A stretch of DNA of 62,025 bases from a virus (Duplodnaviria; Caudoviricetes). The stretch covers positions 1 through 62,025 of the IMG/VR virus record IMGVR_UViG_3300000101_000014; one strand, written 5' to 3'. A program made the translations under genes and the position numbers. The notes under the pieces are model-generated. The model did no database searches. It was not told the origin of the DNA and saw only the letters and a program-made list of their open reading frames with translations. Shown piece after piece: positions 24,107 to 43,339 of this stretch (position 1 is the first letter of the stretch; each line of letters opens with the position of its first letter).

Positions 24107-24114
24107 TATTTATA
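24107..24114 (-). promoter_or_regulatory. T4-type late promoter
   Basis: TATAAATA upstream of 24079. Confidence 0.7.
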
Positions 24115-25897
24115 AAACTTCTGCACTGAAGTAACAAAGTTTTCCGTTGTTATATACAACTAATCCATCTAACGCAGTTTCTTCTAGTACTTGAAATGCT
24201 TCCTTTAATGTATTTAGTATTGGTTTACCCTTAACATTGAAGGATGTGTTGAGTAATACCCCGCCAGAGGCGCCCAGAAGGTCGTAGAGGAACGCATTTG
24301 ACTTTCTGGTAACTGACTGCACCCTTGCCGAACCATCTACATGTGTCACAGCTGCAAGTTGTTCTTTATACTCTTCACGCACTTTAACACTGAAGTTCAT
24401 ATATTCTAGGTTATCATATGACCCTGCATCAAAGTATATATGTGCGTCTTCCTGTCGTACCATAGGCGCAAACGGTCTGTAGGACTCTCTACGTTTGACT
24501 AGGTTGACCTTATCCTTCTTATCCGCACCCTTGGGGTCACAGATGATTGATCGATTACCTAACGCACGAGGGCCAACCTCTGCATTACCCTGCACCAGAC
24601 CAAGGATCTTGTCCTCCTTCAAAAGACCTACTAACTGGTCTATTGAGATGATTGCAGAACTAAACTTGTTTCGATAACTAAACATCTCATGCATGTCTGA
24701 TATTGGTAGACCTGCATAACGAATGTCCGCACCAATGAAATCTATTCTGTTATGTATTGACATATATGTACATATCATACCAAAGGGCAGTCCACTATCG
24801 GTGACATCTGGTGGTACGAATACCTCCAGACCCAACTCTTCCTGTATACGAGTATTGGTAAGGATGTTTAAGGCACAACCGCCAGAAAGAACCAGACGTT
24901 TGCCATTACGACAGATCTTATCCCACACCTCTGGTTCTTGTAAATATTGTAGAACGTTCTCTTCGTGTTGGTGTTGAATACCCGCAGCAATGTCACACTC
25001 TTCTTCCCATGTGGACTGAAAAGGACTGACAAACAAGTTATAATGATTAACCTCTTCTGGGGTTTCGTTCTGATTCTCAGCTATCCATTCTTTGCCGTCT
25101 ACATTTTTCTTACCGGTACGCATGACACCGTCTGACGCCATATCAGATGATGATAAGTTGTACACACTTCGATACCAGATCCATGCTGGGTTGACCATAT
25201 TGGTTGTTTCTTCATCTTCATTAATCAAACCTCTACCTAGGAATGCATGGTAACTATCACGATTTCCATACGCAGACATTCCCATGACTTTACCTGCCAT
25301 GTCTAGAGTTGAATCCGTCTTACTGACCATGTTTTGACAACCTAGTCCAGCGGCTAAGTTATAGTTGCGACCAAAGTAATATGGCCACGGTTGGGGTGCT
25401 TCGTCCCTATCGTAGTTACCGCATTTCATGGGCGTGAGAACCCAAGGTTGACAATCCCACATATGGGTGTGACCATCATCTCCACCTGCATCAAAGGTAA
25501 ACGCAGTACAGGACTTTCCTACCCAAGGGGACTGTGCATATGCACCCCACGCATGAGCGCGATGGTGGCGTTTGTGCCACTCGATCTTACGTACGTTGAA
25601 GATACTTTGGACGATTTCGGGGTCAAGTGAAAGATTGTCATCACCCCACTCATCCTCATGTCCAGCGAAGGAACCGATTATGAATGCATCATAGTCGTTC
25701 TTGATACCCAAGGTCTTTTCAGAGATCTCTAAAACAGTCTCTAGTATCTCTCTTTCTTCTTCTTTTCTTGCATGTCCCCTATAGTGTTTTATTCCTGTTA
25801 ACTTTTCAATCTCTATGACGTGAAATGTTTTTGTTTGGTCGTTGTACAAACATATTGAAGAATCGTGTCCCCAATAAGCAGCGGCCAAGTTAGCCAT
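24110..25897 (-). CDS. Carbamoyltransferase (NodU/CmcH family)
   Basis: HDSS, HHRAHA, DAGGD, GKVMGMSAYG, SGGCALN, GPRALGNRS, RPFAP, HVDGSAR, LNTSFN. Confidence 0.92.
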   Translation of the reverse strand: MANLAAAYWGHDSSICLYNDQTKTFHVIEIEKLTGIKHYRGHARKEEEREILETVLEISEKTLGIKNDYDAFIIGSFAGHEDEWGDDNLSLDPEIVQSIFNVRKIEWHKRHHRAHAWGAYAQSPWVGKSCTAFTFDAGGDDGHTHMWDCQPWVLTPMKCGNYDRDEAPQPWPYYFGRNYNLAAGLGCQNMVSKTDSTLDMAGKVMGMSAYGNRDSYHAFLGRGLINEDEETTNMVNPAWIWYRSVYNLSSSDMASDGVMRTGKKNVDGKEWIAENQNETPEEVNHYNLFVSPFQSTWEEECDIAAGIQHQHEENVLQYLQEPEVWDKICRNGKRLVLSGGCALNILTNTRIQEELGLEVFVPPDVTDSGLPFGMICTYMSIHNRIDFIGADIRYAGLPISDMHEMFSYRNKFSSAIISIDQLVGLLKEDKILGLVQGNAEVGPRALGNRSIICDPKGADKKDKVNLVKRRESYRPFAPMVRQEDAHIYFDAGSYDNLEYMNFSVKVREEYKEQLAAVTHVDGSARVQSVTRKSNAFLYDLLGASGGVLLNTSFNVKGKPILNTLKEAFQVLEETALDGLVVYNNGKLCYFSAEVL

Positions 25898-27423: not shown

Positions 27424-28164
27424 TTAATTGATTGTAGTTCCATAGGTATATCCGTATTCTTTTGGACTCCATATGAAGTCCGAACCGATTGTACGTTGAT
27501 ATTCGTAATCCAGATCTTCCAATAGACAGATTATATCCACACATTTTTTGGTTGATTCTGGATCATCGGCGTTTATTTCCGTAGTGATGACAGGACGCCA
27601 CCGTTTTATTGTTTCCACTGCACCCCTGAGTACTTCAAGTTCGAGACCCTCAACATCTATCTTGATGAAGTCAACGTTCTCAAACTCAAATGAGTCCAAC
27701 GCTCTAACCTGACATTTAAGGATTGTTTCGTACTTACCAAGACCAGCATAAATGTCTAAGTTTCTATAATGAGAAGAATGTCCTGTCCAGCTGGGGGTGA
27801 AGTAAATATCCACCTCACCCTCTTTTTCTCCTAATCCATAGGGGAAGACTTCAACGTTATTATTTTCAAAACGATTAACGTTTTCAATAAGACAATCTCT
27901 GACCGGTGATACGACCTCAAACGACTTAACTTCATCGTATCTCTCACTCATAAACTCACTCACAAAACCATAACATGCACCAACATCAATGGCAACCCTT
28001 TTCTTCGTTTCATTGCCCTTGAGGAATCTATTTAGTTTTCTAAGATAGTTACTGTCCCAACTGGATCTGCCGTAAACGAAGTCGAGTATAGATCCTGACT
28101 TTTCTTCATTCAGTATCGTCCATCCGCGTACTTTCTTTTTACCACCGAAGTAATTATCCTTCAC
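27424..28164 (-). CDS. FkbM-family SAM methyltransferase
   Basis: AIDVGACYG, DFIKIDVEGLE. Confidence 0.85.
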   Translation of the reverse strand: MKDNYFGGKKKVRGWTILNEEKSGSILDFVYGRSSWDSNYLRKLNRFLKGNETKKRVAIDVGACYGFVSEFMSERYDEVKSFEVVSPVRDCLIENVNRFENNNVEVFPYGLGEKEGEVDIYFTPSWTGHSSHYRNLDIYAGLGKYETILKCQVRALDSFEFENVDFIKIDVEGLELEVLRGAVETIKRWRPVITTEINADDPESTKKCVDIICLLEDLDYEYQRTIGSDFIWSPKEYGYTYGTTIN

Positions 28165-30139
28165 AAGCCCGGCACTCCTCTCCTTCTTCTGATTGAAGGG
28201 TACCTCCAGATAACCACTTCATTAAGTCATCATACCCACCTATGTACTCGCCTTCCACGTATATCTGTGGTACAGTCTTTACATCTCTACGTCCAGTGAT
28301 CTCTGCGGCAGTCTTACCTGCATCTTCGATATCAATGGCATCGTATGGAATACCTCTCAGTTTCAACTCTTCTTTTGCGAGTTGACAGAAAGGACAGTTC
28401 TTCTTGGTGTACACCAGAGTACGTCTGTCATCCTGTAGGGCAACACGTTCTACCTTCTCTGATACATTCTCTGCACGTGCCTTTGCTTCTGTACGTAGGT
28501 AGTATAGACCCTTGAGTCCTTCTCTCCACGCCTTTAGATGAACTTGGTTTACGTACGTCTTATCAGATCCTGAAGGGAAGAATACGTTAACAGACTGACC
28601 TTGACATATGAAAGGTTGTCGATCTGCTGCGTGGGTTATTACCCAGTTCTGATCGAGTTCTTGTGCAGTCTTGTAGATTGCTTTCTCACCTTCAGTGAGG
28701 AATGGTAAGTGTTGTACCGATCCTTTGTTGGTGATAATAGAAGTCCAGTTAGAGTTTGTGTCCTCTCCTTTAGTCTTCAACAGATCCACCAAGTATGCAT
28801 TCTTTACTAAGAACGAACCTGCACGTGTGCGGTGTGTGTATGCACATGCCTTCAGGGGTTCAATAGAGGGACTGGTAGAGAGGATTACTCCACTGGATGC
28901 ATTAGGTGCAATTGCTAACAGGTGAGAGTTTCTTCGACCAGATCCGATTCCGTCTGGATACTCACCTTTCTCCACTGCGAGTCTTTCAGTCTCTGCCACT
29001 GCTGCTTCGTTAATATGGTTGAACACAACGTGATTGATCTCTCTGGCTTTGTCTGATTCCCACGCCACCCCGTGTTTCTGTAGTAGACTGTGGAAACCCA
29101 TGGCACCAAGTCCAATAGATCTTTCTCTTTCAGCAGAGTATTTTGCACGTGCAATTGAGTCGGGTGCGTGTTCGATGAAATAGTCAAGGACATTATCAAG
29201 CATACGAACAAGGTCTTCGACAATCGTAGTGTCTTTCCACTCATCATAGTATTCCAAATTAAGAGACGACAAACAACATACCGCAGTGCGATCAGGGGAC
29301 GTGGGTAGATGGATCTCGTTACAGAGATTACTACCATTGATCTTTAATCCCAGATCTTTTAAAGGTTGGGGTAGGTACCTGTTTGCGGTGTCAATAAAGT
29401 TTAAGTAAGGTTCACCTGTACGGAATCGTGTCTCAAGGATACGTTCCCATAACTTACGTGCATCCACGGTATCCTTTACACTGGCATCCTTGGGGTCACG
29501 TAGATTGAACGGAAGACCCATCGTCACACACTCCATGAACTCATCGGTGATATTGATGGCGTTGTGTAGGTTGAGTGCCTTGCGTTGTACGTCACCCGTA
29601 GGTATACGCATGTTCAAGAACTCAATGATATCAGGATGAGACACATCCATATATGCAGCATAAGATCCCTTACGAGTCTTACCCTGACGATATGCAATCA
29701 TGTCAGCATCTACGGTGTGTAGGAATGGCATAGGGCCAGGCGCAACATCAGATACTGTACGTACGTCACTCCAGTGTCCACCGACACCACCACCGAACAC
29801 AGATAACCATCGTAGTTCTGCGGTATGATCAATTAACCCTTCTAGGGTGTCTGGAACATATGTTAGAAAACAAGATATGGGTAGACCTTTACTCTTACCC
29901 TTTCCGTTACCATTAGGCGCATTAGACAACACCGGTGACGCAAACATAAAGTACTTCTTAGATACATAATCATATAGACGTTGTGCGAGATCTTCATCTC
30001 CGCCTGACCATGCAATTGCTGCACGTCTATAACCTTCTTGGGGTGACTTCTCGTTATCGTTTAGGTAGAAGTCCTTTAGCATTCCCACTGCGTAATCTTG
30101 AAGGACGGAGTCGCGGGATTTATCAATCTTAACTGACAT
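28154..30139 (-). CDS. nrdA: Ribonucleotide reductase class Ia alpha subunit with glutaredoxin domain
   Basis: PISCF, SNLCNEI, APNASS, GLYYLRT; then CPFC...TVPQIY..IGGY; C-terminal CRAC. Confidence 0.95.
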   Translation of the reverse strand: MSVKIDKSRDSVLQDYAVGMLKDFYLNDNEKSPQEGYRRAAIAWSGGDEDLAQRLYDYVSKKYFMFASPVLSNAPNGNGKGKSKGLPISCFLTYVPDTLEGLIDHTAELRWLSVFGGGVGGHWSDVRTVSDVAPGPMPFLHTVDADMIAYRQGKTRKGSYAAYMDVSHPDIIEFLNMRIPTGDVQRKALNLHNAINITDEFMECVTMGLPFNLRDPKDASVKDTVDARKLWERILETRFRTGEPYLNFIDTANRYLPQPLKDLGLKINGSNLCNEIHLPTSPDRTAVCCLSSLNLEYYDEWKDTTIVEDLVRMLDNVLDYFIEHAPDSIARAKYSAERERSIGLGAMGFHSLLQKHGVAWESDKAREINHVVFNHINEAAVAETERLAVEKGEYPDGIGSGRRNSHLLAIAPNASSGVILSTSPSIEPLKACAYTHRTRAGSFLVKNAYLVDLLKTKGEDTNSNWTSIITNKGSVQHLPFLTEGEKAIYKTAQELDQNWVITHAADRQPFICQGQSVNVFFPSGSDKTYVNQVHLKAWREGLKGLYYLRTEAKARAENVSEKVERVALQDDRRTLVYTKKNCPFCQLAKEELKLRGIPYDAIDIEDAGKTAAEITGRRDVKTVPQIYVEGEYIGGYDDLMKWLSGGTLQSEEGEECRACEG

Positions 30140-30183: not shown

Positions 30184-30212
30184 AGTATACACTGTACTTA
30201 GTCTTTTGTCAA
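30184..30212 (-). promoter_or_regulatory. sigma70-like promoter for nrdA
   Basis: TTGACA-N17-TATACT. Confidence 0.7.
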
Positions 30213-30650
30213 CTGTTCCGAGGACAATTCTTCATTCTTTTCCAACCAATCTTCACTATCAGTATCTTCGTCTTCTTGTGTTGCTTTGCGATAATAGAGA
30301 ATGATTTCTTTTTGTTCGAGGATGTACCTACGAATCTCTTGTAGGTTGAACGCCATGTTCTCATAACCTTGTGGAGTCAATCCAAACAGGACGAACGATC
30401 CGGACTGTAACTTTTCAAGTTCAGCGATCTGTTCTTCCTTGTTCTTCTCCGTGATTACAAAGAAATGCACATCCTCTAGATTGATGGCCTGTGGAAGAGG
30501 CGGTTGGTAAATCTCTAAAGTTTTGTACTCTGTTACAGTCTTAATGACTGGTTCCGGAATAATGGGGGCAGTATTCCATGACGGTAGACCTGCACAACCT
30601 GTCATTAATACTAGTAGTGATACCGTAAGGATCTTAGTTAATGTCTGCAT
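30198..30650 (-). CDS. Outer-membrane lipoprotein, o-spanin-like
   Basis: Lipobox LMTGC, Pro-rich segment; follows i-spanin-like gene. Confidence 0.7.
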   Translation of the reverse strand: MQTLTKILTVSLLVLMTGCAGLPSWNTAPIIPEPVIKTVTEYKTLEIYQPPLPQAINLEDVHFFVITEKNKEEQIAELEKLQSGSFVLFGLTPQGYENMAFNLQEIRRYILEQKEIILYYRKATQEDEDTDSEDWLEKNEELSSEQLTKD

Positions 30651-31059
30651 TCTCAATCTCCTTACTGTCAGTTTCTATAGAACGAAATACTTGTGCGGTA
30701 CCTTTGTTTATACGGGGTTCAATCAGACCGGGCTTGACTCGTGCGAGTCGGGTCATGTCATGACGTTTGAAGATACCGAGGTACTCATCACGTTCTTTCT
30801 TGAGTTGGTTGGACTTCTCAGTCAACTCTCCTACTGCCTTGAGTTGATTCTGTAAGTTGTTTTCTGCTCGTTCTCTAGACTTCTTTTCAGTCTCCAGTGC
30901 TTGTTCCATCTGCATCTGGTTTGTTTTGAGAATAGCATTATTGGATTCTAACTGGGCGATTGCTTTCTCGGCTTTCCCGAGAGTCACTGTGTGGTATCCC
31001 CATCCTGCGCCCGCAAGTAGAATAATGAGGGGTAACATCTTTAACATTCCAAACATCAT
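30634..31059 (-). CDS. i-spanin-like protein
   Basis: N-terminal TM followed by long coiled coil. Confidence 0.7.
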   Translation of the reverse strand: MMFGMLKMLPLIILLAGAGWGYHTVTLGKAEKAIAQLESNNAILKTNQMQMEQALETEKKSRERAENNLQNQLKAVGELTEKSNQLKKERDEYLGIFKRHDMTRLARVKPGLIEPRINKGTAQVFRSIETDSKEIENADIN

Positions 31060-31310
31060 TTGACCTTTTTTATTTGATAATTAAATGGGTGTTGAGTATT
31101 CATTTCAAACGCCTCACCTGAACTTAGTACTCCCTTGAGACACTTTGAGTTAATCTTATCTATACGTTTAAAAGAGTACTCTGCCTTAGATGACTCATCC
31201 CGCCAGATAAAAACTTCCCACTCATTAGTAAAAAGTTTGACTATAGGACTAGCAATCGAATGTAAACTTGAGGAGACAATCCTCAATAATCCTTGCCATA
31301 TTTTCTTCAT
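31056..31310 (-). CDS. Hypothetical protein
   Basis: ORF track, start trimmed to MKKIWQG. Confidence 0.55.
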   Translation of the reverse strand: MKKIWQGLLRIVSSSLHSIASPIVKLFTNEWEVFIWRDESSKAEYSFKRIDKINSKCLKGVLSSGEAFEMNTQHPFNYQIKKVK

Positions 31311-31545
31311 TTTCTTCGCGTTCCTTATAATATTCATACATTTGTGTTCTATGATGAGGAGGTAACTGGTGGAACTCTATCCACTCCTCTGGTTTCATGA
31401 ACTTCTTTGCAGGGTAACTTACTTCAAGACCAATTTCAAAGTATGGTTGATCCGTGATCAGGTCAATCTTCTCTTCGAGGTTGCCAGATACAGCAACGCA
31501 CCCCGTCATTATCAGAGATAATATCAGGAGTGCGTACGTCTTCAC
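31249..31545 (-). CDS. Putative lipoprotein
   Basis: Lipobox IMTGC. Confidence 0.6.
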   Translation of the reverse strand: MKTYALLILSLIMTGCVAVSGNLEEKIDLITDQPYFEIGLEVSYPAKKFMKPEEWIEFHQLPPHHRTQMYEYYKEREENEENMARIIEDCLLKFTFDC

Positions 31546-32841: not shown

Positions 32842-33165
32842 CTATACTGTAAAACTTTCCCCACAACCACACTCACCAGATTGGTTTGGATTAGAGAACT
32901 CGAAACCTTCATTGAGACCCCTTTTGACCCAATCTAATTTTGTACCATCAAGATACACCAGACTCTTGGAATCGATAACTACTTTAAACTGATCAAACTC
33001 TGAGACATTATCATCGTCTTCAATATTGTCCGCAAACTCTAGAACGTATGATAATCCCGAACAACCGGTAGTTTTGACTCCTAGACGTATGCCAATACCT
33101 CTAGAACGTCCCTGTAGTTGATCTACGACACGTTTCTCTGCGGTGGGGGTGAGAGTGACACTCAA
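32842..33165 (-). CDS. iscA: Fe-S cluster carrier IscA
   Basis: GCSGLSY and CGCGESF. Confidence 0.93.
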
Positions 33166-33575
33166 GTGAAGACACAGAGATCAATAAGTTCTGCGACAGC
33201 TCTTTTCTTTTTTATGTCTTTAACTGCGGCTTGAATGGCATCCTCAGCGAGTACTGAACAGTGAATCTTCACGGGCGGTAGTGCCAACTCTTCTGCGATC
33301 TGAGTGTTCTTGATTTGTGCGGCATCATCGACATGTTTACCTTTGACCCACTCAGTTAAGAGAGAACTGGATGCAATTGCTGAACCACAACCGTAAGTCT
33401 TGAACTTAGCATCCTGAATGATACCTTCTTTAGATACCTCGATTTGCAGACGCATAACGTCACCACAGGCAGGTGCACCGACCATACCAGTGCCGACATT
33501 TTCAGCAAACTCATCCATACGACCTACATTACGTGGATTCTCGTAGTGATCTATTACTTTCTCTGAGTATGCCAT
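33162..33575 (-). CDS. iscU: Fe-S cluster scaffold IscU
   Basis: [41 protein letters not shown]. Confidence 0.95.
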
Positions 33576-33763
33576 TAACTAAGTTTCCTTTGAATCCATT
33601 TGAATAGTGCGTAGATACTTAGACCGTAGAAGGCCAATACACTCATGGGTAATGCGATATAGATGAGTTCCCACGGAGACAAGAATAATATTTCCCATGT
33701 GAACTGTGCTACTGCTTCTGCGTCACCCAGTTCTGCAACATCATCGAACTCACATTCGTCCAT
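33575..33763 (-). CDS. Small membrane protein
   Basis: Single hydrophobic helix. Confidence 0.55.
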   Translation of the reverse strand: MDECEFDDVAELGDAEAVAQFTWEILFLSPWELIYIALPMSVLAFYGLSIYALFKWIQRKLS

Positions 33764-33767
33764 TGGT

Positions 33768-34226
33768 CTAATCCGCTAGTGGGTTATCGAGTACTTGTTG
33801 TATTTTCTTGGTGAGTCTGTCTTCGAGAGCTTCGATTTGTAGTCGAGTATCGTTTTGTAGGGACTCTCGTTTCGTGTCAAACTTCTCATTCGCACGGTCT
33901 ATCTGACCTTCCACCTTTTCATTCATGTCCCTTACAGTGGACGAGAATCGGTCTACACGTCTTTCCATGCGGTTAAAATCGTCTCTTAGGTCATTCTTGA
34001 TTGATCGAGAGTAGTCGATTGCCTCATCGAGTTTGACTTCGATCACTTCGTTACGTGCTTTGATATCACCTACGTCAATGTTCTGAACAATTTCTTTCAT
34101 GTCCATATAGTCTTTGTAGAACTCAAAACCAGCCCACGATGCTCCACCTAGTGTAGACAGTGCGGTAAATGCAATCGCCATCATACCACCCTGAAACTTT
34201 ATTCCGGCAATTTCTATTTCTGCCAT
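33768..34226 (-). CDS. Membrane-anchored coiled-coil protein
   Basis: N-terminal TM then heptad-rich region. Confidence 0.65.
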   Translation of the reverse strand: MAEIEIAGIKFQGGMMAIAFTALSTLGGASWAGFEFYKDYMDMKEIVQNIDVGDIKARNEVIEVKLDEAIDYSRSIKNDLRDDFNRMERRVDRFSSTVRDMNEKVEGQIDRANEKFDTKRESLQNDTRLQIEALEDRLTKKIQQVLDNPLAD

Positions 34227-34237
34227 TTTTGACCTTC

Positions 34238-34693
34238 CTAGTTATCGTCACTTTCTGCGAACTTGAGGTTTCTTAGATTATAGACCTCTTGTTCTAGTTT
34301 GCGAATCTCCAGTTCCCTTGCTTTCAACTCCAATTGATACAACTTATTACAATCTAACCTCTTCTTGGGCGCCCCAAGAGGAATGGTTATCTTTGCATAT
34401 ACACCAACGTCTCTCACGAATCCGTTGGGATCGTATCCGTCAGGGTCTACCCCAACGTTCTGTTGATTAAAGTTCTGTCCATATGGATCGTTTTGGTTTA
34501 ACACACCTACCACACCAAACTCAACATTAGTCGCAGAACCAATAGCCTGTGAACACTCAAATTGCCCTGCCCGAACTCTGTCGGACTGATAACTCTGTGA
34601 TGAACTAGGTAACGCCATATTGATTGAGTTTGATTGTGCCCAAACGGGTACACTAGTTATCATCAAAAGTATCATTACTAAAATACTTCTCAT
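34238..34693 (-). CDS. Secreted protein (beta-hairpin + coiled coil, Cys pair)
   Basis: Signal peptide ending VWA; two Cys. Confidence 0.65.
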   Translation of the reverse strand: MRSILVMILLMITSVPVWAQSNSINMALPSSSQSYQSDRVRAGQFECSQAIGSATNVEFGVVGVLNQNDPYGQNFNQQNVGVDPDGYDPNGFVRDVGVYAKITIPLGAPKKRLDCNKLYQLELKARELEIRKLEQEVYNLRNLKFAESDDN

Positions 34694-34700
34694 TTTATTC

Positions 34701-35117
34701 TCACTTTATCTTCGAACAGATTCTCGAATATAACATAGGTTTTGTTGATTTGTTCTGAAGGGGTCTAGACTTAGAACACACATAAACCACACGGTCTTTA
34801 TCTTTGGCCCTTATGTATATATCTATCTTCTTTTGCTTCTGAAATCCTATCTGAACTGTGTTTTTTGCGACACTATTAGTGGTAATCGCAAACGGAACGT
34901 CTGTCCAGTCTTCTTCGTGTACCGATAATTGGTAGTATAAGATATCGTTACGACTGTTGAACAGTCTCATCTCTGCCTTGTAAACCGCAGGGATATGAGA
35001 TAGTTTCAATTTGGGATAGGTAGGAGTCCACTCGTGGGCACTTGCGTACCCACTCGTGGTTGTAAACATTATTAAAACGAATGCACGTGTTAATCTATTC
35101 ATCATTATATCTCTCAT
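34701..35117 (-). CDS. Secreted Ig-fold / pilus chaperone-like protein
   Basis: Signal peptide ending ASA; beta-rich; VCS...ICS Cys pair. Confidence 0.5.
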   Translation of the reverse strand: MRDIMMNRLTRAFVLIMFTTTSGYASAHEWTPTYPKLKLSHIPAVYKAEMRLFNSRNDILYYQLSVHEEDWTDVPFAITTNSVAKNTVQIGFQKQKKIDIYIRAKDKDRVVYVCSKSRPLQNKSTKPMLYSRICSKIK

Positions 35118-35154
35118 TTAAACTCTAATATCGAAAAGTAATCCTTTACGTCTG

Positions 35155-35162
35155 TACTTATA
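35155..35162 (-). promoter_or_regulatory. Variant late promoter
   Basis: TATAAGTA in intergenic gap. Confidence 0.4.
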
Positions 35163-35196
35163 TCCGTATTTCAACATTAAAAAACGTGCACGATTC

Positions 35197-35700
35197 TTAC
35201 AGAGCAATGCACTCGGCAATCACAGCAGACTGGTATTGTCCGCCAGGATATGCACGACCTACGCCGTATATCGCCTCAGAATCAATCTTGAACCATGTAG
35301 ATCCAGCAACGGTGAGACTGATCTCAGTTACGTTGTTGTACTCTATCTTATCATTATCATAGGCACTCATTGTGCTGTCTGATACTTGATCTACGGAAAC
35401 GTCTCCTGTCCAGTATACAACGTCAGTTAGTGCGGGGCTCTCTGTGAATGTCTCAGGGTGGGTTATTACTGCTTTGTAATAACTTGCCTGAATCACATCA
35501 AATCGCACAACTGGTCGAACACCGCCATCAGCAGGATCAGTGCTCAGAGTACCGGGCGCAGGGTTACCAAACACCCCACCGATATCCTGAGTAACTACAC
35601 ACTTGCTTTCTACAGAACCGGAAACTGGTATCTGTGTGTTCGCGTATGCAGTATTACCTAAAACCATCAATAACAATAATACAAAAGTTTTCTTGAACAT
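35197..35700 (-). CDS. Secreted fimbrial/pilin-like protein
   Basis: Signal peptide AYA; IPVSGSVESKC N-term strand; PGGQYQSAVIAEC C-term strand. Confidence 0.55.
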   Translation of the reverse strand: MFKKTFVLLLLMVLGNTAYANTQIPVSGSVESKCVVTQDIGGVFGNPAPGTLSTDPADGGVRPVVRFDVIQASYYKAVITHPETFTESPALTDVVYWTGDVSVDQVSDSTMSAYDNDKIEYNNVTEISLTVAGSTWFKIDSEAIYGVGRAYPGGQYQSAVIAECIAL

Positions 35701-35719
35701 TACGTTCTCCCTTTTTTTA

Positions 35720-36601
35720 CTACTTCTTATTTGCATACTGTAAATCAATTAATTCTTGGTGCTTTAGATCTTGCGCCAAGCCAACTCTCAATCCCTTTCT
35801 ACTTCTGGGGAGTTTAGCATCCTTCAACACTACTGTGTCTTCGTATGTTCCCCCGTCTATAGAATATGTGTATCCAACTGGTATTCCTTTTAGTTGGACT
35901 AAACTATTGTGCAATGCAATCTGTTCAGCACTAAACTCGTTCTCTAATGAAATACCGAGAAGTTGTTCTAGTCTTGCATCAGACTCTTCTACACCCTCTG
36001 CAATCTTACGGCGTTCACGGCGATCCTCTTCTTCGTCCTGTGCTCGCATATTTGCCTTTCTATCTAACTCTGCCTGAATATAATCCTCGTCCAGTGGATC
36101 AGTTATCTCCATCGCCTCGTTAACGACTGCCATGGGATCTTTATAGCCCGGACATGTGGGGTTAGACTGTGGATCGAAACATGGATCAAACTGATATCCA
36201 TAAACGACTTCCGTGTCGACTACCGATCCTTCTCCTTCAACTTCTATAGATCCTCTACCCCAAAAATCAATTGGTATTAGAGGTACTGGAACTGACTTAG
36301 TGATTGAGTTTCCACCCACACCACTCCAGTCGTCCGTCTCTCGGAAGATGTATCCATCTCCTCGTGCGTTCTCGTTCTGCACGTGGACTAACATATCATC
36401 TTCTGTATTCTTAACCGTTGTATAACGATAGAATACATTATTGACCTGCAATCCTGCCTGTTGAGGTAGGATATTGGACATTACCCAGTTTAAAGCATCG
36501 TCACGTGCGGCGTTCCCCGTAATACCATATGTGGTATCAGAGTAACAAACCGAGCAATAACAAAGCAACCCCACCAACACCAGCAGCTGTCTTTTTACCA
36601 T
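35720..36601 (-). CDS. Secreted protein (beta domain, DPC..CPGY linker, acidic helical region)
   Basis: Signal peptide; ORF track. Confidence 0.65.
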   Translation of the reverse strand: MVKRQLLVLVGLLCYCSVCYSDTTYGITGNAARDDALNWVMSNILPQQAGLQVNNVFYRYTTVKNTEDDMLVHVQNENARGDGYIFRETDDWSGVGGNSITKSVPVPLIPIDFWGRGSIEVEGEGSVVDTEVVYGYQFDPCFDPQSNPTCPGYKDPMAVVNEAMEITDPLDEDYIQAELDRKANMRAQDEEEDRRERRKIAEGVEESDARLEQLLGISLENEFSAEQIALHNSLVQLKGIPVGYTYSIDGGTYEDTVVLKDAKLPRSRKGLRVGLAQDLKHQELIDLQYANKK

Positions 36602-37103
36602 TACTCATGCCCTCCTCGGCAACATCTTCGCCTTCTAATTCTGCGAGTTCCCACGCAGTCTTTGCGTCATTACCGATCTTACCGTCCTTTGGACAGGGAG
36701 TACCAGCATTCATCATAGCGTCAAAAACCCTACGATCGGTACACATGACCGATACGGCAGCCACTTTCATCCCCATGTCATAGAGAGTCTTAGCGTTCTT
36801 TAACCGTTCGCAATTGTCGTCCGTGATTTGTGTTCCGGTACTAATACCCAATATTTGAGTCTGTACCGCACCCGCAACACCGAATGTACATAGATCCGAG
36901 TTGGAGGTGTTAATCGTAGGTGTGATCGCTGAAGCTGGAGGCGATTTCAACGTAGTCGTGGACTCCGTCTTAGAACTAACCGTGCTATCAGTCGTACTAT
37001 CTGTGTAGATAATATCCAGCGGTGTTTCATCTTCGGTGTTATCCTGTGCAGATACACAAAGGGATAACACCATCAATGGGAGTATGACAATATATTTAAA
37101 CAT
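36537..37103 (-). CDS. Secreted Cys-containing protein with C-terminal membrane anchor
   Basis: Signal peptide VSA; Ser/Thr-rich linker; four Cys in mature part; GVGGVALLLLGLLL tail. Confidence 0.65.
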   Translation of the reverse strand: MFKYIVILPLMVLSLCVSAQDNTEDETPLDIIYTDSTTDSTVSSKTESTTTLKSPPASAITPTINTSNSDLCTFGVAGAVQTQILGISTGTQITDDNCERLKNAKTLYDMGMKVAAVSVMCTDRRVFDAMMNAGTPCPKDGKIGNDAKTAWELAELEGEDVAEEGMSNGKKTAAGVGGVALLLLGLLL

Positions 37104-37129
37104 AATTTAACCATCCTTTAAGTGACAAT

Positions 37130-37137
37130 AATTTATA
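37130..37137 (-). promoter_or_regulatory. Variant late promoter
   Basis: TATAAATT upstream of 37103. Confidence 0.45.
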
Positions 37138-37217: not shown

Positions 37218-37553
37218 TTACTTTTTACCACCTGCGTAGGCTTGTCCACCAAAGAACGCAGCGACAATTGCGGCAACTGATACAAAGTACGTTGCAGCCA
37301 TATCACCTAGTATCTTAGATGCACCATCCAGACCAATCAGATCTGCGATGACTACTGCGAAGGGGTATAGTAGAAGACCAAATAAGGCAAACCACGTCAT
37401 GCTTCTTTGTGCATCACGCATTGCGTCTTGATCTTCTAACTCTCTTCGCTTAAACTCAAGATGCATCTCAAGTTCTTCTTTCGAAATATGTCCATCACCA
37501 TTAGTATCAGCACCGTCAAGTATATCGGAGTCGATTGTCTTATGGTCAGCCAT
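37218..37553 (-). CDS. Holin-like membrane protein with EF-hand-like motif
   Basis: DTNGDGHISKEE, two TM helices. Confidence 0.55.
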   Translation of the reverse strand: MADHKTIDSDILDGADTNGDGHISKEELEMHLEFKRRELEDQDAMRDAQRSMTWFALFGLLLYPFAVVIADLIGLDGASKILGDMAATYFVSVAAIVAAFFGGQAYAGGKK

Positions 37554-37554
37554 A

Positions 37555-37848
37555 TCAGTCTTCCTTGAGTTCCTGTGGTGCAAATATTGCGGGAGACTCG
37601 TGCCAAGTCTGTTCCGCTTCCGTTAGTTCTCTTTCTGTCGCAGGTGCTTCATGCAATGTGCGAGGTGTAACCGGTCTCCAGTCAGGCTTTACTGCTTTCT
37701 TTTTCTTCGCCTTTACTGGTTTAGGGTTTCTTGCCTCGTGCCACTCTGCGATGAACGCAGGGGACAACTTCTGAGACTTGAGAAGTTCACCCGTAGTAGG
37801 ATGAACCCAACCAGTTAGAGTAGGTATTGAGTTCTTAGGTTCTGCCAT
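37555..37848 (-). CDS. Hypothetical protein
   Basis: GWVHPTTGELLKS motif. Confidence 0.65.
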   Translation of the reverse strand: MAEPKNSIPTLTGWVHPTTGELLKSQKLSPAFIAEWHEARNPKPVKAKKKKAVKPDWRPVTPRTLHEAPATERELTEAEQTWHESPAIFAPQELKED

Positions 37849-38862: not shown

Positions 38863-39153
38863 TCAAGAAATAAATTGAGTTAGTGCGGCACCTATCACTG
38901 TAGCAACGATACCAATTAGTACCCATGCGAACTTTTGCATGATTGCAACTTTTTCCACGATAGTTGTCACGTGTTTTTCTATATTGTCTATCTTTCCAGA
39001 CAGACGATTCATTCGTTCGTGCTGCTCCGCACGTCTTGTTTCTAAATCTTCGATTTTTTCTTCCACCCTGGCAAGTTGAATTATCGATTCCGACATTTTG
39101 TCGATTTTATCTTCAATCCTCATCATTCTGATTTGTGCTGTTTCGTTAACCAT
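38863..39153 (-). CDS. Coiled-coil protein with C-terminal TM
   Basis: Heptad repeats + hydrophobic tail. Confidence 0.6.
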   Translation of the reverse strand: MVNETAQIRMMRIEDKIDKMSESIIQLARVEEKIEDLETRRAEQHERMNRLSGKIDNIEKHVTTIVEKVAIMQKFAWVLIGIVATVIGAALTQFIS

Positions 39154-39422
39154 TACCACGCCTTACACGACCAATATCGCGCCTTGTCTTTTGGGCCCGG
39201 ATTGTCGCAGTTATGACGTGCCCTGAATGATTTTCGACGGCCAGGAATATTCTTCTTGATCGTCATGTTTTTGTCACCAAAGTTGACTTTCTTTGCCTTA
39301 CCGTCACCATCTGGATCAACATAAACCTTGGACTTTTTTACATCTCCAGACATAGGTTTATTTAGAGGAACTTTCTTCCCCTGATATGTCGCTTCACTGC
39401 AATGTTGTTTAAACGATTTCAT
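39153..39422 (-). CDS. Small basic putative internal virion protein
   Basis: MKSFKQHCSE; KVNFGD, RRKSFRARHNC, ARYWSC. Confidence 0.7.
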   Translation of the reverse strand: MKSFKQHCSEATYQGKKVPLNKPMSGDVKKSKVYVDPDGDGKAKKVNFGDKNMTIKKNIPGRRKSFRARHNCDNPGPKDKARYWSCKAW

Positions 39423-39453: not shown

Positions 39454-40893
39454 CTATTTTGAACCTTCGTTAGATCGACCGACTAACTGCCAACCATCTT
39501 TCTTCATTCGGTCAGCAGTCGCACCGTCAACCGTACGGGTGTAAGTCCCTTTCTTAACAGTGTACACCTCTGCACCTTCTTCAACTTCAACCGACTCCTT
39601 ACTTTTCTGATATGCCTTGTACTCTTTACGTCTTTCAGCATCTTTCTTCTTCTCGGCAGGAGTCATTTGAGATACTGCTTTACGTGCTTCTCTCATCTGA
39701 CTGAATGTCATATTTTCCTTGACAGACTCGTTCTTCCAACCACCACCAGCGGCTTTATACTGTTTAGCTGCCCATCCGTTTGCATATGCTGAGGGATATA
39801 CGTCAAACTTTGCCTTTGCCTGCGACTTAAACTTAGACCAGAGTGAGGGGTTCGTTGGTACACTCTTCTCATCGAGGTATTCTTCTTTCTGCAAGTCTTT
39901 CATCTTCTGCATAGAGACGGGTTGACCTGCCTTGGAGACGATACCGTTCATACCTTCCTTTCTCTTCTGAGCGAGGAACTTCTCTGCCTCACCCTGAGTT
40001 CGGAACTTAGTTTGTAAGATTGTCCCTCTCTTTGACTTTGCATAACTGACTACAAACTGTTCATTCATTACTGACTCTTTGATACCGTTTTTCTTTCTCC
40101 AACCCAAAACAGTTTCAGCATCATTGACTTCGTCTGCATACTTCCCCGCTTTCTTTCCGTTGGGGTTTGCTTTGACGGCAGCGGCTGCATCTTTCCTAAT
40201 GTACATCAATTGTGATTTTGGTAAGTTCCAGAATCTATCGTTTTCGATACGAGCGCCGTTCCTAGGTCGTCCATCACCCATTTTCCAATTGGTCTTTTCT
40301 TGCATTTCTACTGATTCCTTTTTATCTGTTTTTACCATAATGGGTTTGTTACCTGTGCCGGGTCTATCGACTTCAGGGTCTGCACGTCTCTTTCTACGTG
40401 CACTGGACGCACGGTCTTTCTTCTTCATACTATGTGCTTTGTCTCGGGGCATACACTTGGGTTTACCTTCGTCAGGTTCTCTTGCACAATCACCCTTAAT
40501 ATCTCCATCGGTACCTACACGAACCCAATCACCTTTCTTACCTTTACCAAACCACTTACGGAGATCTTCCATACGCAGTCTTGGTTCTCTTCTATTGTAG
40601 TGTTGCGTCACAATAGAGAGATTTGACTTGTCGTTGTTCATAGGATTGTTATCCTTATGATGAACGTCTTTCTCATCGGTTAGGTCTTTACGACCCCTCA
40701 ATGCACGGCGTGCCGCATTCCTTGCAGCACGTCTCTTAATTTGTTCGGGGTCGGAATGATAGTTGGCATACTCTTTGGCATAGTCCCTACCTTTGTGTTT
40801 CACAACCCCTTTCTTTGTATCTTTCTTACGGTCTCGCATCACTGCGGACTTGTTTGCCTTGTGGGCATTCTTTGCTACTGGATTATTTTTCAT
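39454..40893 (-). CDS. Multi-module basic polyprotein-like virion protein
   Basis: HNH-like, LRKWF, YPSAYAN modules separated by KES..E linkers. Confidence 0.65.
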   Translation of the reverse strand: MKNNPVAKNAHKANKSAVMRDRKKDTKKGVVKHKGRDYAKEYANYHSDPEQIKRRAARNAARRALRGRKDLTDEKDVHHKDNNPMNNDKSNLSIVTQHYNRREPRLRMEDLRKWFGKGKKGDWVRVGTDGDIKGDCAREPDEGKPKCMPRDKAHSMKKKDRASSARRKRRADPEVDRPGTGNKPIMVKTDKKESVEMQEKTNWKMGDGRPRNGARIENDRFWNLPKSQLMYIRKDAAAAVKANPNGKKAGKYADEVNDAETVLGWRKKNGIKESVMNEQFVVSYAKSKRGTILQTKFRTQGEAEKFLAQKRKEGMNGIVSKAGQPVSMQKMKDLQKEEYLDEKSVPTNPSLWSKFKSQAKAKFDVYPSAYANGWAAKQYKAAGGGWKNESVKENMTFSQMREARKAVSQMTPAEKKKDAERRKEYKAYQKSKESVEVEEGAEVYTVKKGTYTRTVDGATADRMKKDGWQLVGRSNEGSK

Positions 40894-41357
40894 TATGATT
40901 TTCTCTCGATATACCATACTGTACCGGACGAACTGGTGTCAGTACGTACGTTGTATTTACTACCTACTGCTTTCTTAACAAGTCGACCATACAATCTCTC
41001 CCTTCCCTGTAAACTTTTATCCGTCTTACTTGTGCCGGGTTTCTTGGCAGCCGACAGATTCATGTACTTGGGATTTTCTATTCTTACGAAATCTTTTAAC
41101 AACTTAAAAACAGTTGCCATGATCTTTAATGCATCACCTTCACCCGTCATTCCTTGGTCTTTCTCATTACGTACAAAGTTTATTTCCCAATCGAGTTCGT
41201 CATAGTCATCAATATGATCATTCGCTTCCATGTCTACATTAACCTTTCCACCATCGTCAAGGTTAAACGTAGAGCGATACTCCCATTTCCCTGTCTTCTT
41301 CAATGTTGCAGGGTAAGTCCTATCTAATGATTCGTCTAGTTCTCTAAACGTTATCAT
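40893..41357 (-). CDS. Putative internal virion protein
   Basis: MITFRELDE N-term; TGEGDALKIMATV, RERLY. Confidence 0.6.
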   Translation of the reverse strand: MITFRELDESLDRTYPATLKKTGKWEYRSTFNLDDGGKVNVDMEANDHIDDYDELDWEINFVRNEKDQGMTGEGDALKIMATVFKLLKDFVRIENPKYMNLSAAKKPGTSKTDKSLQGRERLYGRLVKKAVGSKYNVRTDTSSSGTVWYIERKS

Positions 41358-41360
41358 TTC

Positions 41361-41597
41361 TTATTCATCCTCATCACCTTTTGCGTCCCAAAAGGATTTA
41401 CTTAATTCACCTTTGCTTGTATCACCAGTTTCACCAACTCTACGAACTTTAACATACATTAGGTGAACACCGCCACTGGCTGAGGTAAATGTTCTAATTC
41501 CAGATGCCGTTGTTCCGTTTGCAGCAATGCAATCTGCTGCCGTGGCTGCATTATCATATTCCCAATCGGGGTTATTTGGAATTGCTACCCATGCCAT
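41361..41597 (-). CDS. Hypothetical protein
   Basis: ORF track; TAATG overlap. Confidence 0.6.
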   Translation of the reverse strand: MAWVAIPNNPDWEYDNAATAADCIAANGTTASGIRTFTSASGGVHLMYVKVRRVGETGDTSKGELSKSFWDAKGDEDE

Positions 41598-43339
41598 TAC
41601 TTTTGACTTCCTTTAATATCTTCGTTCGTCTTAGGTTGAGTCTTACGAGCGATCGCATTGGCACGTGCAATACGAGCGCGATCAAGGATACGATCGTGTT
41701 TCTTTGCATCCGTATCCTTCTCACGTGCGATCCTTTCACGTGCGCGATCAAGAGCATCTTCCTTGATCATTTGTTCCGCCATGGACGCAACTTTACCTAA
41801 CTCACGTGCATCAAAACCTGTGATGCCATATTTCCTCATGACCTGTTGTGCATGGTATGCTGCGCCATGTCTACCAGTCTTGTCCTTCTCCATCTCTTTC
41901 CGTACAAACTTTGCAATTTCTTTGTACTTTTTGGACTTGATTGTCTTCGCCAACCAGTGTTTGATCATTGATGGGGTAGACATTTCGTTGAGATCCTCGT
42001 ATGATTCAGGTAGGGTCGATTCATACTTTAACTCGGGATCAGGAGATTTGAATGCTTTCTTACGCATTATTGTTTTGTTAACAACTTCGAACTCACCGTT
42101 CTTCCAGTTGATCACTACAGGTAGGTTAAGGTCAGACTGCATGTCCTTGAGGATCGCTTCTTTGTTCGCGTTCTTCTTGATCTTTCTACCTTTGTTGTCT
42201 GCCATCTTCTTGAACAGACGTTGTAACTCTGCAACGGTGATTGCGGGTTTGTTTCTCTTATCATTCATACGATCTTTGAAGTGTCGAGTGAACTCGATAT
42301 CTACATCGAACTTATTGAGTAGACGATCTGCAAACTTCTCTAGATCGTTTAGTTCCTTCTGAGACACGTCTTCTTTGACTCCACGTCTCTTACGTAGTAG
42401 ATCTTGTGCACGGTTAATGCCAGGCGTCATCTTAACTGCCTTCTTAACTGCGGCGGGAGTACCTTCTTCGGGTTGTCTCTTGGTAGTTACCAATACACCC
42501 TTCTTGACAATCGGTGACTCTTCTACTAGTTCTACGTTCTCGATCCACTGACGGGATACACTACCCTCATCTAATGCAACGATAACATAGTTGGTACCTA
42601 GACGATGGATCTGTCCAGACTTACCACCTTTGATCTTTACGTTGTCACCCTCTACGAACAACTCACCCTCGATGTACTTCTCACGTGCCTCTGATACGGG
42701 TTCTAGACTTAATCTGTTCTTGAACTCTTTAGTCTCTTTGAGACCCATACCAGTACGCACATCATTGAACAACCTCTTTGCGTCACGGTTGGACATCGAT
42801 GTTGGTACACCCTGAGAGAACAACGTGAAGTCATTCTCTTTGGCATTCGCTCTCTGTTTGGAGGCAGACATACCTGTCAAACCTTCCGCATCAGGATCAC
42901 GATCACCAGACGAGATAATAGTAATCTTCTCGAAGTTATAGAATCCGTGACGACCCTTGACGTTGTTGTACTTCTTTAGGAGAGTTTCGAACTCTGTGAG
43001 ACGGTCTGCACCAACGACCATATTGATTTTGTTGAATCCTTCATTGTGCAACTTGACTGCAACATCAAAGACGGTACGAGAACCTTTGTCTGATATGATG
43101 CTCCGTGCATGTTTTGGAAACATTTTACGTACATGTTTAATCTTCTGGTCATAACTCAAAGGATTCTTTCTTGCATCCTGAGTCTGTGACAGGTAGATTT
43201 TGTAAGGGGATTTTCCTGACTTCGCGGACATGGTGTTCATTAACTTACCATGACCTGTCGTAGGAGGGTTCATTCGGCCATAAGTGAAGAATACTTCTCT
43301 TTCTTCTTCGACCAAATATTGTTTAAATGAGGGTAACAT
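41597..43339 (-). CDS. Cytidylyltransferase/NMNAT-like nucleotidyltransferase with appended modules
   Basis: GRMNPPTTGH (HIGH-like), KNPL, VVGADR, RDPD, MSASKQR. Confidence 0.82.
   Translation of the reverse strand: MLPSFKQYLVEEEREVFFTYGRMNPPTTGHGKLMNTMSAKSGKSPYKIYLSQTQDARKNPLSYDQKIKHVRKMFPKHARSIISDKGSRTVFDVAVKLHNEGFNKINMVVGADRLTEFETLLKKYNNVKGRHGFYNFEKITIISSGDRDPDAEGLTGMSASKQRANAKENDFTLFSQGVPTSMSNRDAKRLFNDVRTGMGLKETKEFKNRLSLEPVSEAREKYIEGELFVEGDNVKIKGGKSGQIHRLGTNYVIVALDEGSVSRQWIENVELVEESPIVKKGVLVTTKRQPEEGTPAAVKKAVKMTPGINRAQDLLRKRRGVKEDVSQKELNDLEKFADRLLNKFDVDIEFTRHFKDRMNDKRNKPAITVAELQRLFKKMADNKGRKIKKNANKEAILKDMQSDLNLPVVINWKNGEFEVVNKTIMRKKAFKSPDPELKYESTLPESYEDLNEMSTPSMIKHWLAKTIKSKKYKEIAKFVRKEMEKDKTGRHGAAYHAQQVMRKYGITGFDARELGKVASMAEQMIKEDALDRARERIAREKDTDAKKHDRILDRARIARANAIARKTQPKTNEDIKGSQK

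Follow-up and report, generated by a model that had tools for sequence, protein, structure and literature searches.

The described systems closest to the gene set considered here are chaperone-usher pili (type 1 Fim, P pili, CFA/I, and Csu), the two-component spanins (lambda Rz/Rz1 and T4 PseT.3/PseT.2), the XhlA/holin/endolysin cassettes together with the class II holins, and the curli genes of marine phages. The last group comprises CsgG and CsgF genes carried by pelagimyophages and by the Methylophilales phage Melnitz, for which a role in lysis timing has been proposed (PMC9004378). The subject of this study is a six-gene operon, A-F, found in 62,025 nucleotides (nt) of viral DNA (Duplodnaviria; Caudoviricetes), corresponding to positions 1 to 62,025 of the IMG/VR record IMGVR_UViG_3300000101_000014; this whole stretch is hereafter called the window. 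The DNA originates from an uncultured T4-like marine myophage and encodes, among others, a UvsX-like recombinase, a DnaB-like helicase, a ribonucleotide reductase, and a carbamoyltransferase; the 62-kilobase (kb) record is a partial genome estimated to represent about 37% of the whole. The operon is an undescribed block, very common in aquatic phages. In the explanation favoured here, to which we assign a probability of about 45%, its products form a periplasmic envelope complex, specific to phages, that acts together with the lysis programme.

A previous sequence-only reading of the window had proposed an operon of six genes coding for five signal-peptide proteins and a coiled-coil protein with a transmembrane (TM) segment. 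The six open reading frames (ORFs) are indeed arranged head to tail on the minus strand, at 33768-37103, and form a co-conserved block that belongs to no described family. Their products, in the order of the genes, are as follows.

A, 36537-37103, minus strand: 188 amino acids (aa); signal peptide, Ser/Thr-rich stretch, four-Cys hairpin-helix core (residues ~55-152), acidic linker, and hydrophobic C-terminal tail.
B, 35720-36601, minus strand: 293 aa; signal peptide, eight-stranded jelly-roll (~24-138), long acidic helix, and conserved C-terminal helix ending ..H..[ML]V..QY.
C, 35197-35700, minus strand: 167 aa; signal peptide, N-terminal extension of 11-13 residues (h-x-h-x-G-x-V...C), immunoglobulin (Ig)-like beta-sandwich, and C-terminal P-G-G-x-Y-x-A...C.
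D, 34701-35102, minus strand: ~133 aa, with the start probably at 35102 in an ORF that opens at 35117; signal peptide, mature His-Glu-x-Thr-Pro-Thr-Tyr-Pro, beta-rich, two Cys.
E, 34238-34693, minus strand: 151 aa; signal peptide, Cys-flanked beta segment with a variable loop, and C-terminal leucine-zipper-like helix.
F, 33768-34226, minus strand: 152 aa; N-terminal membrane anchor, coiled coil, and invariant C-terminal ..LDNPL[AS][DN].

Searches of IMG/VR yielded 11 loci with C and 70 loci with B. Among the 58 distinct loci in which the sequence continues for at least 3.6 kb past the start of A, 46 kept the gene order A-B-C-D-E-F, nine had A and F but lacked C, D, and E, and in three A alone was recognised by hidden Markov models (HMMs); since A, B, or C served as bait for the retrieval of the loci, these proportions are biased. 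Within this limit, conservation of the operon, which had been put forward as a check on the sequence-only reading, was confirmed. The flanks vary among lineages and the A-F block is constant, with median intergenic distances from A to F across the relatives of -65, 3, -11, -4, and 3 nt. Pairwise ratios of nonsynonymous to synonymous substitution rates (dN/dS) against relatives were in the range of 0.05-0.31 for all six genes. All six genes are under purifying selection; they are real genes and move as a unit.

The A and B genes overlap at 36537-36601, where the final 21 codons of A share their DNA, in another frame, with the opening 21 codons of B. The overlap is conserved (the median of -65 nt was obtained for 40 loci) and encodes the hydrophobic tail of A and the signal peptide of B. 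The A-like genes that do not overlap the next gene, namely those of locus L102, Mosig, HTVC202P, and the CRP phages, lack the hydrophobic tail; therefore, membrane anchoring of A is not a family-wide property.

A-like proteins were detected in the Pelagibacter podophages HTVC115P, HTVC202P, HTVC033P, HTVC023P, and Baldr, in the pelagimyophage Mosig, and in the Roseobacter phages CRP-207 and CRP-810, with more distant ones in Achromobacter and Ralstonia phages. The core of A is 50-55% identical between the T4-like phage and the SAR11 podophages. A metagenome protein search with the A profile returned at least 8000 matches and, among the 120 matches listed, no Pfam domain and no name beyond 'hypothetical protein' was found. 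For E, tblastn matched 191 phage records, 182 of which were Vibrio phages, while the same search with C and D against cultured phages gave no match, and the homologues in Vibrio phage pVp-1 emerged only when family HMMs were used. The A profile was also scanned against one genome per species for 185,579 species; all 24 matches were contigs of metagenome-assembled genomes (MAGs) assigned to inconsistent taxa, including Melainabacteria, Opitutales, Bifidobacterium, and a methanogen. We read these as mis-binned viral contigs and the cassette as virus-specific.

No named family was found for A-E in Pfam, NCBIfam, PADLOC, or the PDB sequences, and A, D, and E match only PHROGs of unknown function (A, PHROG 20531 at 2e-16; E, PHROG 37374 at 2e-9; D, PHROG 25455 at 7e-6). 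In NCBIfam and PADLOC, F gave only sub-threshold coiled-coil matches, e.g., to ZorA and TraP. Profile searches of the PDB sequences with all six proteins produced nothing meaningful; the best match of F, ATP synthase subunit b (E 0.0013), was dismissed as coiled-coil noise. The ESM Atlas contains no model of either A or B, and the feature matches there were confined to their own unnamed viral clusters. A full-text literature search, which did not extend to supplementary tables, found no description of the cassette.

Among the individual proteins, A is strongly conserved, with 52 invariant alignment columns. The Cys-hairpin-Cys-helix pattern that had been noticed in both A and E can be seen in the alignments as a Cys-flanked beta segment followed by a helix; a profile comparison with hhalign gave 86% probability for the pair, limited to the signal peptide and the N-terminal motif. 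The predicted mature N-terminus of D is a His residue (HE-x-TPTYP), invariant in 45 of 45 family members. D has no PDB sequence match and no Pfam hit beyond BsuPI at E 0.096.

Signal peptides were assessed by a rule of thumb, a hydrophobic core followed by an AXA-like (small-x-small) site, which held for 47 of 48 members of family A, 47 of 48 of B, 45 of 45 of C, 46 of 46 of D, and 43 of 43 of E. In F, a net-negative N-terminus precedes a single hydrophobic segment and the coiled coil; the latter is of variable length in the family (138-192 aa), and the tripeptide NPL lies within the last eight residues in all 43 members. These features strongly indicate that A-E are exported via Sec signal peptides and that F resides in the inner membrane, in line with the five signal peptides and the TM coiled-coil protein of the sequence-only reading. 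The mature window proteins contain four Cys residues in A and two each in B, C, D, and E, while F and the product of the neighbouring gene gEF contain none. The even counts in A-E and the absence of Cys from F and gEF fit periplasmic disulfide formation, and A-E are probably disulfide-bonded in the periplasm.

The six-gene operon unites two older sets of three genes each, A-B-F and C-D-E. The first was found without C, D, and E in HTVC115P, HTVC202P, Mosig, CRP-207, CRP-810, and six MAG-binned viral contigs, where an A-like gene is followed by a gene for a large exported protein (187-713 aa) and then by one for an F-like protein ending ..NPL. Homologues of F were identified in HTVC115P, CRP-207, and CRP-810; the F-like proteins HTVC202P gp26 and Mosig_200 were recognised by eye only, not by HMM, and the B-like C-terminus (..H..[LMI][VI]..QY) was likewise recognised by eye in HTVC115P gp53 and in loci L100, L102, and L107. 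In GenBank, the F-like proteins CRP-207 gp73 (L086 3292-3873) and CRP-810 gp51 (L088 5710-6132) carry the labels 'putative lysozyme' and 'lysozyme', for which neither Pfam nor PHROG gave support, and the A-like CRP-810 gp53 (L088 4324-5079) is called 'OmpA family protein' without support from Pfam. These labels look like annotation errors able to mislead context analyses.

The second set is present in the T5-like Vibrio phage pVp-1, where the consecutive genes 0077, 0078, and 0079 match the C, D, and E HMMs in the same order, with scores of 27.4, 25.5, and 43.1 bits, respectively, and A, B, and F are not present alongside. The C-D-E triad was HMM-tested in this one cultured phage and recognised in three more by annotation layout. 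In these four Vibrio phage types, the triad follows a protein of more than 700 aa without a signal peptide (L115 66-2651; the first coding sequence in L116, L117, and L118), which is probably a tail fibre or other structural protein.

Both sets repeatedly adjoin lysis genes. In locus L095, the series A-B-C-D-E-F-gEF is followed by a GTA_holin_3TM gene (PF11351, 86.9 bits) and then by a GH19 endolysin gene (PF00182, 37.9 bits). Across the 71 distinct loci, a GH19-like endolysin lies no more than 1.2 kb downstream of F in 16, comprising full cassettes as well as L102, which has the A...F arrangement only. Genes for a 'putative holin' and an M15 endolysin follow 0.6 kb downstream of the end of the C-D-E triad in pVp-1, and in Vibrio phage 1.205.O, a peptidase M15 gene is located 2.3 kb downstream of the triad. 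The A-B-F set of HTVC202P lies directly upstream of the large terminase subunit gene, which is the classical place of a lysis cassette. Because the two triads provide this neighbourhood evidence independently of each other and in several phage families, a late role in the envelope and in lysis is the best supported. Clustering of all ORFs within 3 kb of the cassette in the 71 loci gave the following recurrent neighbour families.

gEF: neighbour in 33 of 71 loci.
GH19 endolysin: neighbour in 16 of 71 loci.
126-aa membrane protein between gEF and the endolysin: neighbour in 16 of 71 loci; no Pfam hit.
Small basic protein: neighbour in 11 of 71 loci.
XhlA-like coiled-coil/TM protein: neighbour in 9 of 71 loci.

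The 126-aa membrane protein may be a holin. In the window, the lysis-type genes are scattered as in T4: a T4-type lysozyme (PF00959) is encoded near 20.7-21.1 kb, while the spanins, the XhlA-like gene, and gEF are all located within 4 kb of the operon.

gEF, 37218-37583, minus strand: 121 aa; N-terminal EF-hand loop and two TM helices, with holin- or antiholin-like topology.
XhlA-like protein, 38863-39159, minus strand: coiled coil with a C-terminal TM helix; phrog_1193 'hemolysin', 9.5e-7; upstream neighbour.
Spanin pair, 30198-31059, minus strand: i-spanin-like protein (30634-31059) and lipoprotein (30198-30656, lipobox LMTGC); 2.7 kb downstream of the operon.

Two TM helices were predicted for all 19 members of the gEF family examined, and the DxDxDG loop is present in 17 of the 19; the Pfam EF-hand_5 match of the window protein (9e-6, 25.3 bits) is just under the cut-off of 25.9. 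A literature search at listing level found no description of a calcium-binding, EF-hand-containing, holin-like protein. At the DNA level, gEF is conserved in Melnitz (gene 108), HTVC008M, and CRP-207 (gp72). A relative of the XhlA-like protein has an XhlA hit in Pfam below the cut-off. The two spanin genes match phrog_739 (4.9e-9) and phrog_812 (4.8e-14), both annotated as 'Rz-like spanin'. A second small lipoprotein gene (31249-31545, minus strand, lipobox MTGC) lies just upstream of the spanin pair and is kept in seven close relatives. A small basic protein is encoded at 39153-39422 on the minus strand (phrog_7595, motif ..SF.ARH...YW..K.W), and its gene is linked to the cassette in HTVC202P, CRP-207, and CRP-810. 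It is followed in coordinate order by the gene for a 487-aa protein (39454-40917, minus strand), which has ..PSAYANGWAAKQYK.. in its C-terminus and resembles CRP-207 gp70.

A T4 late-promoter-like heptamer was found in front of the operon.

TATAAAT, 37131-37137, minus strand: T4 late-promoter-like heptamer, 27 nt upstream of A; putative promoter.

The same heptamer occurs within 120 nt upstream of A in eight of 46 relatives, compared with 55 of 2350 random windows. The late-like promoters of the sequence-only reading are only partly borne out: this TATAAAT site is a single one, and the six exact TATAAATA sites of the window all lie outside the operon and its immediate surroundings. Contigs from metatranscriptome libraries labelled as RNA (X1, X2 with its apparent duplicate X3, and X4) map to the operon, most of them with at least 99% likeness, and three bridge adjacent genes.

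X1 record 1, 33583-34314: RNA-labelled contig bridging F and E.
X1 record 3, 34532-35571: RNA-labelled contig bridging D and C.
X2 record 11, 35059-36068: RNA-labelled contig bridging C and B.

Since DNA can occur in such libraries, these contigs are a weak sign of transcription of the operon.

Taken as an envelope complex, the cassette could work as follows. A, with its disulfide-stapled hairpin-helix core, would form an ancient core together with B and F. B would contribute a glycan-binding-type jelly-roll, a polyacidic helix, and its conserved C-terminal helix, while the coiled-coil stalk of F, with its lineage-specific length, would span the periplasm and offer the invariant LDNPL peptide to a partner. 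C (Ig-like and pilin-like, with a free N-terminal strand), D (a small beta protein), and E (a Cys-hairpin with a leucine zipper) would constitute an accessory sub-assembly, which may act like a set of chaperone, subunit, and anchor. The complex would be made late and act in or on the envelope alongside the holin, endolysin, spanins, and gEF, where it could help to dismantle the layer of peptidoglycan and outer membrane or determine when lysis occurs; it would build no chaperone-usher pilus. A bolder form of this proposal, which we consider rather unlikely, is that tailed phages from widely different families have in common a multi-protein periplasmic machine not recognised before, in which the A-B-F stalk is joined by C as a pilin without an usher, D as a half-chaperone, and E as an anchor. 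This would be a further component of lysis in phages of Gram-negative bacteria, e.g., a donor-strand-assembled scaffold connecting the inner membrane, the wall, and the outer membrane that controls the time and place of envelope failure, with Ca2+ sensed by gEF.

A number of observations weigh against the envelope complex. The case for a lysis role is one of gene neighbourhood, none of the proteins being homologous to any protein of known function, and the protein-protein contacts within the cassette are inferred. The probe detected an endolysin in only 16 of the 71 loci, and many loci are too short for a verdict. No endolysin gene adjoins the cassette in the window or in its closest relatives, the PF00959 lysozyme gene being about 13 kb away, and in the window it is flanked by iron-sulfur (Fe-S) assembly genes and unknown genes. 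In two of the four Vibrio contexts (pVco-14 and K478a), the annotation shows no lysis gene over a distance of 3 kb, and all four triads follow a large, probably structural, protein. Because the phage possesses a canonical spanin pair, the known outer-membrane step can do without the cassette. Finally, exported 'moron' genes and exclusion genes also tend to adjoin lysis cassettes.

The sequence-only reading had seen a resemblance to a minimal pilus or surface apparatus; in protein C, it noted an alternating N-terminal strand leading to a Cys and a C-terminal motif of the PxGxYxxxV type. Both hallmarks proved to be conserved. In the N-terminal extension, a Gly and a subsequent Cys are invariant; Gly at position -14 and a Cys within the last six residues are present in 45 of 45 family members, P.G.Y.[AST] in 44 of 45, and the Tyr two residues past Gly(-14) is invariant. 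In the AlphaFold2 model (predicted local distance difference test score, 86), C is a beta-sandwich with the first 11-13 mature residues disordered. The best Foldseek matches in the PDB were chaperone-usher pilins (CfaB, the pilin domain of PapG, CsuA/B, FimG, and CS17), with probabilities of 0.96-1.00; however, they were weak (E 8e-4 to 2e-2, TM-scores of 0.35-0.51), and when ranked by Z, the fold is a generic Ig-like sandwich with no pilin among the best 50 rows. The 'h-x-h-x-G-x-V...C' segment is visibly similar to the N-termini of E. coli FimA/I/F/G, while hhalign of C against these proteins gave only 18% probability and covered only the N-terminal 35 residues (signal peptide, extension, and Cys). 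A prediction of a complex of three copies of mature C reached a median score of 0.41, just short of the mark of 0.42, while the controls scored 0.00-0.01; this speaks neither for self-assembly nor against it.

Searches with C yielded no Pfam hit at E <= 1, and a BFVD fold search recovered only unnamed viral proteins. HMMER detected 112 family members in 1.84 billion representatives; six distant full-length relatives were looked up and are unnamed, and ten members scanned, including these six, had nothing in Pfam below E 0.05 and no fimbrial or SCPU family. Lookups of viral and metagenome contigs for the context of the distant relatives found nothing. Neither Fimbrial (PF00419), SCPU (PF05229), nor PapD_N (PF00345) had a match in the window. 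The absence of a classical usher, already pointed out from the letters alone, extends to the Pfam Usher family (PF00577, ~800 aa), which had no match at E <= 1 in the 62-kb record, i.e., in about 37% of the genome, with a positive E. coli control; no usher-sized ORF is present inside or beside the operon. The single Ig-fold chaperone domain that the sequence-only reading had seen in D gained no support: mature D has about 110 aa, enough for one domain at most, and hhalign of its profile against E. coli FimC gave a probability of 0.14%, i.e., no similarity. At the level of sequence, the cassette is thus not a member of the chaperone-usher family, lacking the usher, the two-domain chaperone, and the pilin family. 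What stands of the pilus proposal is an exported operon with pilin-like motifs in C, while its context is lysis-like; a periplasmic complex linked to the envelope and lysis fits better than a pilus because both halves of the cassette adjoin holin and endolysin genes and A and F occur without C, D, and E.

A reduced version of the pilus idea retains the donor-strand principle without the usher: C would be assembled by donor-strand complementation, with D as a one-domain chaperone and E as an anchor, into a periplasmic or surface fibre serving adhesion, receptor masking, or sibling capture. The disordered N-terminal extension with its Gly and Cys, the Gly(-14)/P-G-x-Y-x-A strand, the alignment with the Fim pilins, and the pilins at the top of the Foldseek list all speak for it, as does the C-D-E order, kept as far as the T5-like Vibrio phages. 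Nevertheless, we regard it as doubtful, given the poor Foldseek and hhalign scores, the lack of Fimbrial, SCPU, PapD, or Usher matches, the dissimilarity of D to FimC, the lack of an usher or any other recognisable outer-membrane pore, and the occurrence of the A-F core pair without C, D, and E; such a fibre could also be the mode of action of the C-D-E half of the envelope complex. Similarly unlikely is a function in superinfection exclusion, receptor masking, or lysis inhibition, in which the products would block or sense incoming phages or shield receptors on debris, and may signal to the holin via gEF or F. All products are periplasmic or membrane proteins whose genes adjoin lysis genes, a location shared by exclusion and antiholin genes, the phage's own spanins leave room for a regulatory or protective part, and gEF combines a holin/antiholin-like two-TM topology with a Ca-binding loop. 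However, the 50-55% identity of the A core between the T4-like phage and the SAR11 podophages, and the presence of the cassette in phages whose hosts belong to different classes, are unusual for receptor-specific exclusion, A-E have no PADLOC model match, and the late-promoter-like signal fits poorly, the T4 exclusion genes imm and sp being early genes.

The remaining two explanations are weaker still. The cassette might replace the spanins in the last lysis step, with F as the i-spanin and A or E as its outer-membrane partner; the architecture of F (N-terminal TM segment, periplasmic coiled coil, and conserved C-terminal peptide) and the holin/endolysin neighbourhood would suit this, and no obvious Rz/Rz1 pair was seen, by eye only, in L095 or L102. 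The separate canonical i-spanin and lipoprotein o-spanin of the window make it improbable, as do the alignments of A-E, which show no conserved lipobox Cys at the cleavage site, and the profile of F, which matches no spanin PHROG and is not similar to that of the Rz-like protein of the window. A periplasmic module for handling metal (Cu or Fe) is suggested by the N-terminal His of D, since a His right after the signal peptide has been used as a search key for metalloproteins such as lytic polysaccharide monooxygenases, according to two reports (PMC12537917, PMC10952591), and by the neighbouring Fe-S assembly genes. The latter, IscU-like (NifU-like) and IscA-like, are located directly downstream of the operon (32842-33575, minus strand), at a distance of 200 nt, and the IscU gene is about 71-73% identical in DNA sequence to genes in the records of Phage C48C1 and Acinetobacter phage MD-2021a. 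However, the D homologue of pVp-1 lacks the N-terminal His, the family alignment of D contains no second invariant His, the IscU/IscA neighbourhood is retained in the closest relatives only, and no metal-binding family was matched; we therefore consider this explanation very improbable. Other auxiliary genes of the window, at 24110-25897, 28154-30139, and 41597-43339 (all on the minus strand), encode a Nol-like carbamoyltransferase, a ribonucleotide reductase large subunit with a C-terminal thioredoxin-like part, and a cytidyltransferase-like protein.

The cassette ranks among the commoner gene sets of aquatic phages that lack an explanation; the A family is present in SAR11 and Roseobacter phages as well as in uncultured ones, and the C-D-E set in Vibrio phages. 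If it does have a role in lysis, the three-step model of holin, endolysin, and spanin would be incomplete for a large share of marine phages, and in the ocean, lysis timing and burst size would hinge on an undescribed machine. The cultured carriers pVp-1, CRP-207, CRP-810, HTVC115P, HTVC202P, and Mosig make the question directly testable.

Compared with the two-component spanins, the cassette is similar in the type II anchor, coiled coil, and C-terminal peptide of F, a likeness of architecture only, in the position of its genes in or near lysis cassettes, and in having periplasmic partners with Cys residues. It differs in comprising six proteins instead of two, in lacking a lipoprotein partner, and in the absence of a spanin PHROG for F. 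The likeness to the XhlA/holin/endolysin cassettes and the class II holins concerns gEF, whose two TM helices would probably leave both termini in the cytoplasm and which lies between F and the holin/endolysin genes in many loci, and the XhlA-like protein, which is a recurrent neighbour; unlike class II holins, gEF carries an N-terminal EF-hand loop. With the curli genes, the cassette shares the nature of an exported envelope gene set in marine T4-like phages of streamlined hosts. The gEF homologue of Melnitz is located within 7 kb of genes annotated as 'curlin associated repeat protein'. Close by, genes 101-104 (L085 1-4352) are annotated as encoding an adenylate/guanylate cyclase, a FecR-domain protein, and curlin-associated repeat proteins, a further set of envelope or signalling genes in a related phage. 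An identity of the cassette with curli was rejected, since neither CsgG (PF03783) nor CsgF (PF10614) had a match at E <= 1 in the record and A-F are unrelated to them by Pfam.

With the chaperone-usher pili, the cassette has in common small Sec-exported proteins, the placement of a beta-rich D beside C, and, in C, an Ig-like sandwich, an alternating N-terminal extension ending in a Cys, and the Gly(-14)...Tyr strand motif. It differs from them in having neither an usher nor a two-domain PapD-type chaperone, in that C falls outside the Fimbrial and SCPU families, and in that the disulfide of C, judging from the Cys positions, would join the N- and C-terminal strands rather than strands A and B. 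The cassette is, moreover, located in lytic phages beside lysis genes, and if C and D do act as a pilin and a half chaperone, the donor-strand principle would operate in lytic phages without an usher.

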